A DNA stretch of 60,553 nt from Candidatus Pacearchaeota archaeon (GTDB taxonomy: Archaea > Nanobdellota > Nanobdellia > Pacearchaeales > GW2011-AR1): assembly GCA_016181895.1 (NCBI GenBank), contig JACOYL010000010.1, positions 1 to 60,553 on the forward strand, read 5' to 3'. Each line of letters starts with the position of its first letter. Positions within the stretch are counted from its first letter, which is position 1. The notes under the pieces were generated by a model. It searched no databases and was not told the DNA's origin. It saw nothing but the letters and a program-made list of their open reading frames with translations. Positions 35,567-59,209 of the stretch are shown here, piece by piece. Position numbers and translations under genes: made by a program.

Positions 35567-35860
35567 ATGAGTTATATTTTTGAGATTAAAGACAAGACAG
35601 GAAGAAAAATTCGTTTAACAAAGAAGCAATGGAAGCATATTACAACAAAACATCCCGATATGTCTGGAAAAGAGGAAGAAATAAAACAAGTTTTGGAAAG
35701 GCCCGATATTATCCTGCCGCATAAATTTGATGAAATGTCAAGAAATTATTATTTGTATGATAAAAATGAAAAAGCATATTTATTTGTTTCAGCAAGATAT
35801 TTAAACGGCGAGGGTTTTATTATAACGGCATTTTATACTCAACATATTAGGAAAAAATGA
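35567..35860 (+). CDS. putative RNase toxin (BECR/DUF4258-like)
   Basis: RLTKKQWKHI..KHP...YLNGEGFIITAFY; coupled to a DUF2283-like gene. Confidence 0.7.
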   Translation: MSYIFEIKDKTGRKIRLTKKQWKHITTKHPDMSGKEEEIKQVLERPDIILPHKFDEMSRNYYLYDKNEKAYLFVSARYLNGEGFIITAFYTQHIRKK

Positions 35861-36096
35861 CAGACAGAAAAATAGAATTAAACTATGAACCTGAAACAGA
35901 TTTACTGGAGATTTTTATAGGGGACCCTGTGCCGTCTTATTTTAACGAGATAGATGATGATTTGTTTGAGGGACATAGTAAGGAGACAAATGAATTAACA
36001 GGATATAAAATATTTAATCTGAGCAAGAGAAAAAAACAGGAATGGATTAAAAGCGTTAAAATCTCTTTGCCTGCTAATGTTAACATAACTTCTTGA
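35857..36096 (+). CDS. DUF2283-like antitoxin
   Basis: NYEPETDLLEIFIG. Confidence 0.7.
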   Translation: MTDRKIELNYEPETDLLEIFIGDPVPSYFNEIDDDLFEGHSKETNELTGYKIFNLSKRKKQEWIKSVKISLPANVNITS

Positions 36097-41312: not shown

Positions 41313-42119
41313 TCACTTCACGTTCTTCATATCCTTCCAAGCCAAATCAAAAAGTTGTTCAAGCGCGGAGGCGAAAAACTCCGTGTTTATCCAGACTCCC
41401 GTGTCGTAATTCGGATGGAATTTTTCGTCATCAAGAAGCATGAACATGACTTGATTGCTGTCGATGATTGCAAATCTTGCCTTGATTTTTTCCATGTTTC
41501 TTATTTCCGCGACTTTCTTCAAGTCCCTTGCAACTTTTACATTGTTGTTGTCGACAGGCGCGGCAATTCTTACTTTCACGCCGCGCTTTTTCAGTTTTTC
41601 CAAACTAGGCATCAATGCTTCAAACTTTCTGTTCAAGCCTTCTTTTGTCGTGACAATCACAACTGATTTCTCCGCGTTTCTTATCATCATGTCAAGATGA
41701 TTGTACAGGTTTTGTCTTCCTTTCAGGCTTCCCGACAAATCAGTTGGCTCGATGAATTTTATTCCCTGCGTGAAAATCGTGTTCAGTTCTTCCAAAACCT
41801 CGTCGGTTTTCAATGTCTCAAGCCTTTTTGTTTTTTCCTGCGCGTCCTTTACAAGATTTTTTTTCACCCTTTCAATGACCTCTTCCGGTTTTAGAGCCAC
41901 AAATTTAATCGGCTTCCCCAATTTCATCACAATGAAACCTTTTTTCTCCAAGCTCTCAAGAATATCATAGGTTCTGCTTCTTGGCACGTCGGAAATGTTG
42001 CTTAATTCTCCCGCAGTGCTCGTTCCCCTCGACAATAAGGCGGTCCAAACCTTTACCTCATAAAGATTCAAATCAAAAATTTTTCGTAGACGGCTTAGAA
42101 ATTCTTCCTTTACTATCAT
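41313..42119 (-). CDS. TrmB-family transcriptional regulator
   Basis: LNLYEVKVW..LL..G..TAGELS..SDVPRSRTYDILESL. Confidence 0.9.
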   Translation of the reverse strand: MIVKEEFLSRLRKIFDLNLYEVKVWTALLSRGTSTAGELSNISDVPRSRTYDILESLEKKGFIVMKLGKPIKFVALKPEEVIERVKKNLVKDAQEKTKRLETLKTDEVLEELNTIFTQGIKFIEPTDLSGSLKGRQNLYNHLDMMIRNAEKSVVIVTTKEGLNRKFEALMPSLEKLKKRGVKVRIAAPVDNNNVKVARDLKKVAEIRNMEKIKARFAIIDSNQVMFMLLDDEKFHPNYDTGVWINTEFFASALEQLFDLAWKDMKNVK

Positions 42120-56434: not shown

Positions 56435-56552
56435 AGCAGGGTGGAGCAGTCTGGAGTGCTCGTGGGGCCCATAAACACGTTTAATTCAAAAATGAAAAAA
56501 CAAAAAGTTTAGGAAACCCCAAGGTCGCGTGGTTCAAATCCCGCCCCTGCTA
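56435..56552 (+). tRNA. initiator tRNA-Met(CAU) with a ~42-nt intron (56474-56515)
   Basis: A1:U72 acceptor AGCAGGG/CCCTGCT, A11:U24, consecutive G:C pairs in the anticodon stem, CAT anticodon. Confidence 0.88.
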
Positions 56553-56928: not shown

Positions 56929-57009
56929 GCCCAGTTCGCATAATGGTATTGCACCGGATTGCTAATCCGGGCCCTTCGGGGCTCGCAGGTTCGATTCCTG
57001 CACTGGGCG
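56929..57009 (+). tRNA. tRNA-Ser(GCU)
   Basis: GCCCAGT/ACTGGGC, CCGGA-TT-GCT-AA-TCCGG, long variable arm GCCC-TTCG-GGGC, G73. Confidence 0.95.
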
Positions 57010-57027: not shown

Positions 57028-57753
57028 ATGGATGAAGATTTAAATCTTTGGAAAAAAGAATTTAGAGAAAGTAAAGATTGGAAAGAAAAAAGGGAAAAAT
57101 TTATTGTAGAAAAAGGGAGAAAATGTGAATGGTGTGGTTCCACAGAATTTTTAACACCAGCTCATAAAGATTGTTGTATTCCATTAAAGATTCAATTTAA
57201 CGATAAAGAATTTAATACAAACTTTATAATTCTTAATAGCGCATTAAAAACTAATTATTATATGATTTTTAATGATTATTTAAGAGAGATAATAATTAAA
57301 GACTTACCAAAAGAATATTTTAAGAAAGATAAAAATTCTGAAAATGGAACTTCATCAAGCAAATTAAAAAAAGACGCTTGGAAGAATCTTTACCAAAATG
57401 AAGAAATTAGAAGAATTCTCAATCCAGTTGTAGAGAAAACAAATAACATTTTCAAAGAATGGTATTCAAATTTTGATAATTGTTTATTATTATGTAGAAG
57501 ATGTCATTATGCACAGAGTAAAGGTCAGTTTTTATGTGGATGCAAAAAAAGTTATTATTTCATTGAACATGGTTCTTGCCCAAACTGTTATCCAAAAGAG
57601 AAAAAAGAAAAGATAACAAAAAGGAAGAAAGAAGAAGAGGAATTTATAAAAGAACAAGAAAAATTTGAGAGAGAAATAGATGAAAGGGAAAAAAGGATGT
57701 TTGAAAAGTTAGAAGCAATGGAAAAGCAAAATAAAAGGATAAAAAGAATTTAA
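57028..57753 (+). CDS. HNH-like Zn-binding protein with a large insertion
   Basis: WKEKR...CEWCG...H and distant LLLCRRCH; extra Cys cluster; charged tail. Confidence 0.6.
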   Translation: MDEDLNLWKKEFRESKDWKEKREKFIVEKGRKCEWCGSTEFLTPAHKDCCIPLKIQFNDKEFNTNFIILNSALKTNYYMIFNDYLREIIIKDLPKEYFKKDKNSENGTSSSKLKKDAWKNLYQNEEIRRILNPVVEKTNNIFKEWYSNFDNCLLLCRRCHYAQSKGQFLCGCKKSYYFIEHGSCPNCYPKEKKEKITKRKKEEEEFIKEQEKFEREIDEREKRMFEKLEAMEKQNKRIKRI

Positions 57754-57755
57754 CA

Positions 57756-57821
57756 TCACTTCCCCTTCACCATCTTCCCCAATTTCCCCTTCCCCACCAA
57801 TTCAATCATTATGTCCGCGCC
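57756..57821 (-). repeat. displaced grxD 3' end
   Basis: GADIMIELVGKGKLGKMVKGK* versus the grxD end GADILVELAGKGELGKMVGK*. Confidence 0.85.
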
Positions 57822-57871
57822 AGTTAGGAACAAATTCACTCCGATAACAACAAAGGCATTAATTAACGCAA

Positions 57872-58120
57872 CTAAGAATCAGAGATGGAGATGTCCAAAG
57901 GAATAGACATGTTCAATCTTTTAAGAATTGTTTTCAGTATTTCTGTTCTTTTTCCGAACGCCACAATGCCTATGCTCTTCACTTCATTTGTTTTTGAATC
58001 TCGAGTTATCAAAACTTCCGAATCCAATTTTTCAGTATATTCTGTTTTTGGCGGAACTCCAAATGATACTTCCAAATAATCTCCTTCTTCATCGTAATAA
58101 ATGTCAACCGATTCTTTCAT
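57872..58120 (-). CDS. orphan DUF2283-like antitoxin
   Basis: IYYDEEGDYLEV...SIGIVAF. Confidence 0.78.
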   Translation of the reverse strand: MKESVDIYYDEEGDYLEVSFGVPPKTEYTEKLDSEVLITRDSKTNEVKSIGIVAFGKRTEILKTILKRLNMSIPLDISISDS

Positions 58121-58227
58121 TCGATCCTCTGCGCGAAATATGCGGATATGATAAATCCTTCTCCGTTTAAATATTTAACTAAGACAATCATGAATTTATT
58201 TGAAGAGTTTCTTTCTTTATAATATTT
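58117..58227 (-). pseudogene. C-terminal fragment of the YLNGEG-type toxin
   Basis: KYYKERNSSNKFMIVLVKYLNGEGFIISAYFAQRIE*; ATGA overlap with the antitoxin. Confidence 0.7.
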
Positions 58228-58360
58228 CTCTTGGGTCTAATTCTCCTGTTTTTAACCCTTGGATTATTTTCTCAAATTCTTCATAAACTTTATCAGGAAG
58301 ATTGTTAATTTTTTTATTAATTTCTTCGGAGAATTCAATCTTCCATTTTTTATTTTTCAT
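58217..58360 (-). pseudogene. N-terminal fragment of a RelE-like toxin (47 aa)
   Basis: MKNKKWKIEFSEEINKKINNLPDKVYEEF..., truncated. Confidence 0.5.
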
Positions 58361-58444
58361 AAAAAATTAACATAATTATATTATAAAAATATTTAGGGAT
58401 TGTAAAAAGGGATAAACGTGAAAGAGTTTATGATTAACAAGAAC

Positions 58445-58759
58445 TTATTTCCCCACCATCTTCCCCAACTCGCCTTTCCCAGCGAGTTCAACCAATATAT
58501 CGGCTCCGCCGATGAATTTTCCATTGACGAATAATTGCGGAATCGTCGGCCAGTTCGCGTATTCTTTCACGCCTTCGCGAATTGAATTGTCCGAAAGAAC
58601 ATCGAATGATTCAAACTGAATTCCCAAATCCTTTAATGTGTCCGCAGATTTCATTGAAAATCCGCACATAGGATTCTCAGGGGTTCCCTTCATGAAAAGA
58701 AAAACCTTGCTTGATTTTATCAGATTCTCTATCTGTTTTTTTGTTTCTGTCGTTAACAT
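58445..58759 (-). CDS. grxD: monothiol glutaredoxin (Grx4 family)
   Basis: FMKGTP..PMCGFS, WPTIPQLFV.G.FIGGAD. Confidence 0.95.
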   Translation of the reverse strand: MLTTETKKQIENLIKSSKVFLFMKGTPENPMCGFSMKSADTLKDLGIQFESFDVLSDNSIREGVKEYANWPTIPQLFVNGKFIGGADILVELAGKGELGKMVGK

Positions 58760-58767
58760 TTTAATTT

Positions 58768-58941
58768 TTATTGTTTAATGTAAGCGCACAAGACAACATC
58801 TGGTTTTTTAATTCCTCTGAAATACCTGCATATCGAGATATTTTTAATCGCGCATTTGTGTTCATTAGTATTTTCTTCTTCATTCCAAGGACACTTATCT
58901 TGTTCCCAACTTACATCAGCAGGCAACAAATCAATATCCAT
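58768..58941 (-). CDS. small 4-Cys protein (57 aa) between bolA and grxD
   Basis: AAAGGTGG SD; MDIDLLPADVSWEQDKCPWNEEENTNEHKCAIKNISICRYFRGIKKPDVVLCAYIKQ. Confidence 0.7.
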   Translation of the reverse strand: MDIDLLPADVSWEQDKCPWNEEENTNEHKCAIKNISICRYFRGIKKPDVVLCAYIKQ

Positions 58942-58981: not shown

Positions 58982-59209
58982 TTACTCCTTTGTTTCAATC
59001 GACAAGGAATGTAGGTTTTTATTTTTAAAATCTTCCTTTAAAACGTCAAGAACCATCCTGTGCTGTTCAACAAGCGATTTATTCAGGAATTTTTTGTTCT
59101 TCACAATCGCCTTGTAATGCATTCCGTCGTTTCTTTCATCAATGATTTCAACCTTGGATCCCAAAAGATTCTTCTCAATTTTTTCTTTTAATTCTTGAGG
59201 ATTTGTCAT
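58982..59209 (-). CDS. bolA: BolA/IbaG-family protein
   Basis: DGMHY, F....LVEQHRMV..VL, LHSLSI. Confidence 0.9.
   Translation of the reverse strand: MTNPQELKEKIEKNLLGSKVEIIDERNDGMHYKAIVKNKKFLNKSLVEQHRMVLDVLKEDFKNKNLHSLSIETKE

Follow-up and report, generated by a model that had tools for sequence, protein, structure and literature searches.

A displaced grxD gene end beyond toxin–antitoxin remnants in a DPANN archaeon, compared with known systems of gene-end displacement

Introduction

Displacement of the C-terminal coding end of rhs genes (and of cdiA and mafB) has been attributed to a circle and homologous recombination, no dedicated recombinase being proposed (Jackson et al. 2009, PMC2935791), and restriction–modification units are known to insert with long target duplication (Nobusato et al. 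2000; Furuta et al. 2010, PMC2853133); no archaeal case passed the screen of Furuta et al. (PMC2853133). Minimal mobile elements, or recombination hot spots between conserved genes, have been described in Neisseria (discussed in PMC3787668). Here we describe a locus within a stretch of 60,553 nucleotides (nt) of DNA from a Candidatus Pacearchaeota archaeon (GCA_016181895.1, contig JACOYL010000010.1, positions 1 to 60,553 of the forward strand; hereafter the window), in which the last codons of grxD, the gene for a Grx4-family monothiol glutaredoxin, are found again 615 bp downstream of the gene, beyond the debris of a toxin–antitoxin module. The copy belonging to the working gene is called tail A and the displaced copy tail B.

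As in rhs displacement, where the incoming DNA carries its own copy of the conserved gene part and the old end is kept silent downstream (PMC2935791), an old end is retained here downstream of an intact gene with a renewed end, and the reciprocal chimera formed by the two tails fits a homology arm of the rhs type; the sister cassettes described below carry no grx tail. The rhs system differs in displacing a variable toxin tip together with its immunity gene, which changes function, whereas the housekeeping end of grxD was replaced like for like; moreover, the cargo at grxD is an unrelated toxin–antitoxin module, the repeat is only ~75 nt long and the host is a DPANN archaeon. Restriction–modification insertions are small addiction units without a mobility gene, bounded by direct repeats of more than 30 bp which are single-copy in relatives and often lie over a gene 3' end. 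At grxD, too, there are direct repeats of ~75 nt, single-copy in insert-free relatives, and no transposase or integrase. However, the repeats of restriction–modification units are near-identical (e.g. 44/46), whereas those of grxD are 75% identical, with a synonymous bias, a codon indel and a different stop, and their cargo is of the toxin–antitoxin kind; a later allele replacement could reconcile the two. The resemblance to minimal mobile elements lies in the slot between a tRNA-Ser gene and grxD, which holds unrelated genes in different relatives and for which recombination in the conserved flanks is the simplest explanation; that model predicts clean replacement with no duplicated gene end, and tail B is therefore not accounted for by it alone. 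Finally, the cargo resembles type II pairs of the DUF4258/PBECR2–DUF2283 kind in its YLNGEGF toxin and in a downstream antitoxin that overlaps the toxin by 4 nt. Unlike a working pair, in which both genes are intact in one operon, it is a remnant of which only the antitoxin survives, and in the sister locus an additional zinc-ribbon gene, here called X, precedes the pair. The locus is best read as a recombinase-free displacement of a gene 3' end by toxin–antitoxin DNA in a DPANN archaeon, akin to the known rhs displacement and to long target duplication.

The two ends of grxD

The genome to which the window belongs (736 kb, ~90% complete; denoted G000) was compared with three genomes of the same genus (G001, G002 and G003) and with the metagenome contigs L010, L011 and L012. 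The gene and its two ends are as follows.

58445-58759, minus strand: grxD, Grx4-family monothiol (CGFS) glutaredoxin of 104 amino acids (aa), intact and active (Pfam, NCBIfam)
58445-58519, minus strand: tail A, the active gene end, comprising the final 24 codons and stop (KFIGGADILVELAGKGELGKMVGK and stop)
58454-58468, minus strand: 15-nt core TTGGGGAAGATGGTG, encoding LGKMV, identical in both tails, candidate crossover point
57756-57830, minus strand: tail B, silent and displaced, comprising the final 24 codons and stop of a grxD allele (LFLTGADIMIELVGKGKLGKMVKGK and stop)

The identity of the working gene is clear from its matches to PF00462 (Glutaredoxin, E 5.8e-20) and TIGR00365 (Grx4 monothiol, 130.7 bits against a cut-off of 117.1) and from orthologues of 79-84% identity in two genomes of the genus. 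A sequence-only reading of the window had taken the segment starting at 57756 for a displaced grxD C-terminus. Positions 57756-57821 translate as GADIMIELVGKGKLGKMVKGK and stop, the grxD counterpart being GADILVELAGKGELGKMVGK and stop, and the similarity can be extended to ~57830. When the grxD protein was compared with the whole genome by six-frame tblastn, the best non-self match was 57768-57830, on the same strand and 615 bp downstream of the gene's own tail (15/21 identical, E 3.5e-5), the third-best match of the protein having an E value of 0.043. The 15-nt identity between the tails claimed in that reading was located: the two copies of CACCATCTTCCCCAA lie at 57768-57782 and 58454-58468. 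The same 15-mer is present in G003 and, nearly unchanged, in L012 and L011, so that it is a conserved patch and not unique to the tail pair. In a genome-wide tail-echo scan, in which the last 24 residues of 892 gene-like open reading frames (ORFs) were searched against the genome, the grxD echo was the strongest of all same-strand downstream echoes (40.3 bits), and 10 such echoes of at least 24 bits were observed against 1.9 expected from the genome-wide match density. The displaced tail is well beyond chance.

Of 60 aligned nt, 14 differ between the tails, through nine synonymous and five conservative non-synonymous changes, giving a ratio of non-synonymous to synonymous rates (dN/dS) of 0.07; when tail A was mutated at random, so few non-synonymous changes arose in only 0.05% of stop-free trials (p 5e-4). 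Tail A and tail B are further set apart by the codon indel and the change of stop. Each of the four amino-acid states specific to tail B (M, I, V and K) occurs in working Grx4 homologues, and this, together with the synonymous bias of the divergence, indicates that both tails come from functional alleles. Judged by its substitutions, tail B did not arise by duplication in place followed by mere decay. The stop of tail B lies 2 nt from that of the convergent gene beyond it, and the end of tail B with the 5 nt downstream (GGGAAGTGAtgtta) is identical to the junction of the real grxD end and its convergent neighbour in L012; tail B thus occupies the place of a native grxD end. The sequence-only reading had named a separate expressed gene as the finding that would overturn its claim, and the evidence speaks for a displaced end: the frame of tail B is open for only 40 codons, its position is the native one and its differences from the active tail bear the mark of selection at the protein level.

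Each tail appears to combine features of two types of grxD end. Before the core, tail A is of the genus-typical type, with GKGE as in L012 and G003, and this is joined to a short ...VGK-TAA end (GGG AAA TAA, with no extra codon) of the L010/P0026 type. Tail B has GKGK and GCG, as in L010, joined to the longer xGK-TGA-tgtta end of L012. Both parental combinations occur among the 120 best homologues; the recombinant combinations of tails A and B do not. This reciprocal arrangement suggests a single crossover in the shared LGKMV core, which would produce such a pattern. Breakpoint analysis within grxD gave mosaic segment identities; in its DNA sequence the last segment does not resemble L010 more than it does L012.

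The DNA between the tails

A foreign block of ~615 bp (58444 to ~57835) breaks into the final ~25 codons of grxD. It is made up of what is left of a three-gene module (zinc-ribbon gene X, a PBECR2/DUF4258-type toxin gene and a DUF2283 antitoxin gene) and of a piece of a clustered regularly interspaced short palindromic repeat (CRISPR).

58361-58444, minus strand: left end of the insert, 84 nt non-coding, with a putative promoter (TATA-like TTTATAAT ~25 nt before the start codon of X')
58220-58360, minus strand: X', 47 codons from the N-terminus of a small zinc-ribbon protein, the rest having been cut off by a deletion
58117-58223, minus strand: toxin remnant, the C-terminal ~35 codons (ending in KYLNGEGFIISAYFAQRIE and stop) of a PBECR2/DUF4258-type RNase toxin
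57872-58120, minus strand: DUF2283-like antitoxin of 82 aa, intact, now an orphan
57835-57872, minus strand: degenerate CRISPR repeat closing the insert on the right, flanked by the antitoxin stop and tail B

The toxin fragment and the intact DUF2283-like antitoxin had been recognized in the sequence-only reading and are real. The N-terminal fragment at 58217-58360 had been called RelE-like, and this identity of the 47-aa stub is ruled out: neither the fragment nor its 116-aa paralogue has a RelE or ParE match, and profile searches of X' give only weak zinc-ribbon matches in Pfam. X' corresponds to the N-terminus of that paralogue, a zinc-ribbon protein (C10:90880-91230), at 61% aa and 75% nt identity. 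The toxin remnant carries the YLNGEGF motif and retains ~35 of 102 codons, the first ~67 having been lost. Its paralogues lie at 35567-35860 in the window (PF18810, 28.7 bits), at C10:5456-5743 and on C23; the first of these is full-length and passes the Pfam cut-off for PBECR2, a family of Barnase/EndoU/colicin/RelE-like nucleases. Intact toxin–antitoxin paralogue pairs are present at 35567-36096 in the window and at C10:5456-5987. The match of the orphan antitoxin to PF10049 is weak (E 0.032; its C10 paralogue, E 0.0014). DNA related to the left end of the insert (58216-58470) was sought in 40 related genomes, with only low-complexity matches.

Homology to gene X stops, and homology to the sister toxin described below starts, at the same base, 58223. 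The X' and toxin stubs therefore border a single deletion of ~440 bp, which took place at a few bases of microhomology and fused X at codon ~47 to the toxin gene at codon ~68. This deletion, later than the insertion, killed the toxin, and the antitoxin stayed under purifying selection. Between the antitoxin gene and its sister copy there are 22 synonymous and three non-synonymous differences (dN/dS 0.027), whereas the toxin stub has a dN/dS of 0.40 against its sister, as under relaxed constraint. By this comparison, the orphan antitoxin is kept under strong purifying selection while the toxin remnant drifts, and it may still neutralize the paralogous toxins of the genome.

The source of the insert is revealed by eight short metagenome contigs that encode antitoxin-like proteins of 96% identity. 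The sister cassette on these contigs is ~90% identical in DNA to the window over 58223-57849, with an intact 102-aa toxin ahead of the antitoxin and, before the toxin, copies of gene X in decay. A repeat, GTTGCATTCCTTAATCCCTTTGTTCTGAGTGTGAAAT, starts right at the antitoxin stop; there are two per contig, with spacers of 35-36 nt that differ between contigs. The same repeat forms a 23-unit array with a period of 72-73 nt beside a Cas12f1-like gene in G001, and GTTGCATTCCTTAATCCCTTTGTTCTGAGTGTGAAAT is therefore a CRISPR repeat. When 57835-57872 was aligned to it, the score was 17, the null maximum in 5000 genome windows being 14. Cargo of this type thus lies beside a CRISPR array in another population, and the insert, far from being a neat cassette, is a piece broken from a locus of the order X–toxin–antitoxin–CRISPR repeat. 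A candidate second repeat at its left end, TTTATCCCTTT at ~58406-58416, scored 9 (p 0.09) and was not accepted. A search of the G000 genome found neither a CRISPR array nor Cas1 (PF01867). What is added here to the sequence-only reading is the scrap of CRISPR repeat, the sister module with its intact toxin, the joining of both stubs by one deletion, the contrast in selection between antitoxin and toxin, and the genome-wide enrichment of tail echoes.

Some further features of these repeats and cassettes may be recorded. On one sister contig, L120, ~190 nt past the cassette, positions 1880-1906 hold a frame ...EHSVGKIMMH with a 14-nt exact match to a gene end upstream; it resembles the end (...HRKLGKIMIT...) of the 244-aa gene upstream of the cassette and may be a displaced tail, truncated by the contig end. 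Two solo CRISPR repeats of the genus type lie at C3:21102-21128 and C3:32435-32461, each within ~11 nt of a stop codon, and the latter directly precedes an array of one DUF4258-like toxin gene and three DUF2283 genes.

The locus in relatives

Comparison of grxD loci in related genomes had been suggested as a check on the sequence-only reading and bears it out: G002, G003, L010, L011 and L012 each have a single grxD tail and no insert. A further ~95 grxD loci, taken from metagenomes as well as genomes, showed no second tail downstream, and 60 related genomes had no orphan grx tail. Grouped by closeness, ten loci of near relatives and about 90 more distant ones have one tail without an insert. 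The ~95 loci imply that grxD is not a dedicated target, and together with the 60 genomes they led us to reject recurrent targeting of this gene. This grxD is itself found in only 3/61 related genomes.

Downstream of grxD the neighbourhood is variable, and two features define it in the window.

57028-57753, plus strand: HNH-like Cys-rich orphan gene of 241 aa, occupying the variable slot
56929-57009, plus strand: tRNA-Ser(GCT) gene (ARAGORN and Rfam, 59.9 bits), which marks the far, conserved limit of the slot

The tRNA-Ser gene is at the equivalent position in G002, G003 and L011. Between it and the grxD stop, relatives have an unrelated gene of 141, 194, 137 or 219 aa (four complete cases), so that across G000, G002, G003, L011 and L012 the slot holds five mutually unrelated genes; in L010 yet another, the sixth, is just beginning. 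The HNH-like gene is convergent with grxD, and it is its stop that lies 2 nt from the stop of tail B. Apart from one weak match, it is absent from 60 related genomes. The match of its product to PF01844 has an E value of only 0.094, and its sequence shows split HNH-like motifs (CxxC...H and, ~100 aa on, CxxCH), a zinc ribbon and a Lys/Glu-rich tail. A role for this gene as a homing endonuclease driving the event was rejected on account of that E value, of its absence from relatives and because no nuclease is present at the other scarred loci described below. Integration at the tRNA-Ser gene was likewise rejected, since a search for a displaced tRNA-Ser fragment found none.

The same scar at other genes

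The tail-echo scan found three further genes followed by a toxin–antitoxin pair and a repeat of the gene end.

C10:19732-20731: pop5, then an AbrB/MazF pair, then a 35-nt repeat of the gene end
C5:10691-12022: ogg-like gene, then a MazF pair, then a 41-nt repeat of the gene end
C9:22404-24257: ftsY, then a VapBC pair, then a 34-nt repeat of the gene end

In these three repeat pairs the coding differences are all synonymous (5/5). The end of pop5 is followed by a different toxin–antitoxin cassette in each of three congeners (G001, on contig G001:C28, locus L117, being one of them). In G003 (L118 = G003:C18, 988-1017 versus 1507-1536) the cassette is a RelE-type module closed by a displaced pop5 tail, which departs from the active tail by synonymous differences in 8/10 codons, one of them a Ser switch between AGC and TCG. 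The sequence-only reading had seen at grxD the same architecture as at an unrelated gene, rps7, and the recurrence at pop5, the ogg-like gene and ftsY, and at pop5 in the sister species, agrees with that comparison. The scars at these other loci share no core sequence with that of grxD.

Recombinase genes

The insert encodes only toxin–antitoxin debris, and there is no transposase or integrase in it or near it. In the ~90%-complete genome no tyrosine recombinase (PF00589), XerA included, was found, and no credible serine recombinase, the sole PF00239 (Resolvase) match being marginal and inside a TrmB regulator. An integrase-mediated island bounded by attL and attR is not supported, no cognate tyrosine or serine recombinase having been found in that incomplete genome, nor is an integron cassette, since no integrase was found and the boundaries are a gene tail and a CRISPR-repeat scrap, not attI and attC. 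The TrmB-family regulator mentioned above (41313-42119) gives its Resolvase match through its C-terminal domain (24 bits, 41544-41768) and could pass for a serine recombinase in automated screens.

Discussion

The grxD gene stays intact, and its present end, tail A, appears to have been supplied at least in part by the incoming DNA. The former end, tail B, appears to have been shunted downstream, where it abuts the resident neighbour gene as real grxD ends do in relatives. We consider that host recombination anchored in the 3' end of grxD, without a dedicated recombinase, is the best explanation of this arrangement, with a probability of roughly 0.55. The element, bringing no recombinase itself, would have entered through homologous or microhomology recombination of the host at the conserved gene end, in either of two forms. 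In the first, a single crossover would join the resident tail to a circle carrying a tail copy and the cassette; in the second, a linear fragment from a relative, consisting of a gene end, the cassette and a tail, would enter by double crossover, with the distal tail as the second homology arm. In either form, an illegitimate event must first have brought together a grxD tail and a module flanked by CRISPR. Joining grxD directly to the end of tail B would yield a hybrid tail, ...ELAGKGELGKMVKGK and stop.

Several observations weigh against this explanation. The chimera is suggestive only, resting on about six informative characters in 75 nt, and the grxD body is itself a mosaic among clades, which makes the assignment of alleles shaky. 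With only ~75% identity between the tails, and a 15-nt identical core that is conserved in the genus anyway, classical homologous recombination would have had little to work on. No grx tail accompanies the sister cassettes, and a travelling unit of cassette plus grx tail has not been observed; nor have the intermediates of the model, namely the circle, an empty-site variant and the excision junction. Moreover, with the genome ~90% complete, a recombinase could lie in the missing part or have come from a virus or plasmid.

The main rival is insertion with long target duplication, in which a staggered break or replicative template switch would have duplicated ~75 nt and a later allele replacement would have overwritten the working gene, tail A included. 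The tails would then have been identical at birth and tail B would be the fossil of the old allele. The architecture is that of restriction–modification insertions, which produce duplications of 46-400 bp over gene 3' ends without mobility genes (PMC2853133), and the target is single-copy in relatives. This model explains well why the insert ends in arbitrary DNA, with a scrap of CRISPR repeat on one side and a promoter-like spacer on the other, as illegitimate capture predicts, and the mosaic grxD body implies that allele exchange does happen here. It accounts less well for the synonymous divergence of the tails: the young repeats of 34-41 nt at the three other loci differ only synonymously (5/5), for which the odds are roughly 0.01-0.1 if the changes arose after duplication, and the codon indel and change of stop between tails A and B fit an imported end better than conversion of the gene body. 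As two events are also required, we regard it as unlikely.

Two other rivals are less likely than target duplication. In the first, which seems to us improbable, tail B came with the HNH-like gene in an exchange of the tRNA-Ser/grxD slot, with one crossover in the tRNA-Ser gene and the other end joined illegitimately beside a pre-existing cassette. That five mutually unrelated genes each lie tight between tRNA-Ser and the grxD stop, that the HNH-like gene is shared by no relative, and that it stands 2 nt from tail B like a native partner are all as such an exchange would have it, and homology-facilitated illegitimate recombination is documented in bacteria (PMC3240628). The exchange nevertheless needs an earlier, scarless entry of the cassette and leaves unexplained the same scar around toxin–antitoxin cassettes at four or more other loci, where there is no variable neighbour, while the end of tail B, matching the genus-typical end of L012, is equally fitting for a resident origin. 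In the second, site-specific integration by an integrase supplied in trans (by a virus, a plasmid or the 10% of the genome missing from the assembly), the 15-nt core would be attB/attP and the tails attL and attR. Integrative elements typically integrate into gene 3' ends and restore the reading frame, and an identical 15-nt core within otherwise diverged repeats is what this would leave. Set against it are the lack of a tyrosine recombinase, credible serine recombinase or Cas1 in the genome, an insert made up of 0.6 kb of debris, scars at other loci without this core, and ~45 nt of grxD homology in tail B on the element side of the core, which an attP would not need; we judge it very improbable. 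That the feature means nothing (being a similarity due to chance, a short gene in its own right, what is left of a tandem copy of grxD, or a chimera of the assembly) is barely credible: short as the tail is, its genome-wide match has an E value of 3.5e-5 and lies 615 bp downstream of the gene on the same strand, closing with a stop codon; it diverges with a synonymous bias, the pattern recurs on four contigs and in a second genome, and the junctions share no k-mer by which an assembler might have been misled.

The genomes of DPANN archaea are tiny and poor in classical mobile elements, yet the turnover of their accessory genes is fast; in the present genome no integrase can be recognized. In this setting the grxD locus is a readable record, with a conserved end as recombination anchor, an old end as datable fossil and cargo traceable to a CRISPR-adjacent islet; it also shows the usual path of toxin–antitoxin decay, with the toxin lost and the antitoxin kept under selection. 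If a homology arm in the gene end was indeed the point of entry, this would explain how toxin–antitoxin and small defence cassettes move without machinery of their own, as well as the high variability of the last codons of conserved proteins in these lineages. The grxD locus alone is one more instance of the pattern in this genome, and its weight is corroborative. It is possible, if doubtful, that the gene end, cassette and old gene end together form a self-propagating mobile unit without a recombinase, either with gene body and distal tail as homology arms or with the tails looping out a circle. DNA caught between tails would then spread among related DPANN archaea by host recombination, and conserved gene ends would be general landing pads for accessory genes in the lineage.

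Neighbouring genes and minor observations

Upstream of grxD the following genes are found.

58982-59209, minus strand: bolA (PF01722, E 8.9e-12), the upstream partner of grxD
58768-58941, minus strand: ORF of 57 aa with four Cys, between bolA and grxD

The order RNase HII–bolA–grxD is common to G002, G003, L010 and L011, where the contig extends that far, and the bolA–grxD pair occurs in only 3/61 related genomes. The four-Cys ORF is present in G000, G002 and, in part, L012, and absent from G003 and L011.

Beyond the tRNA-Ser gene, positions 56436-56552 hold a tRNA-Met(CAT)-like gene with an intron of ~42 nt at the canonical position. It is reported by neither ARAGORN nor Rfam, and both of its halves match G003 and L011 exactly. 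In G003, a 16-nt exact copy of the tRNA-Ser 5' end lies ~60 nt upstream of that tRNA gene (L009 = G003:C76, 990-1005).

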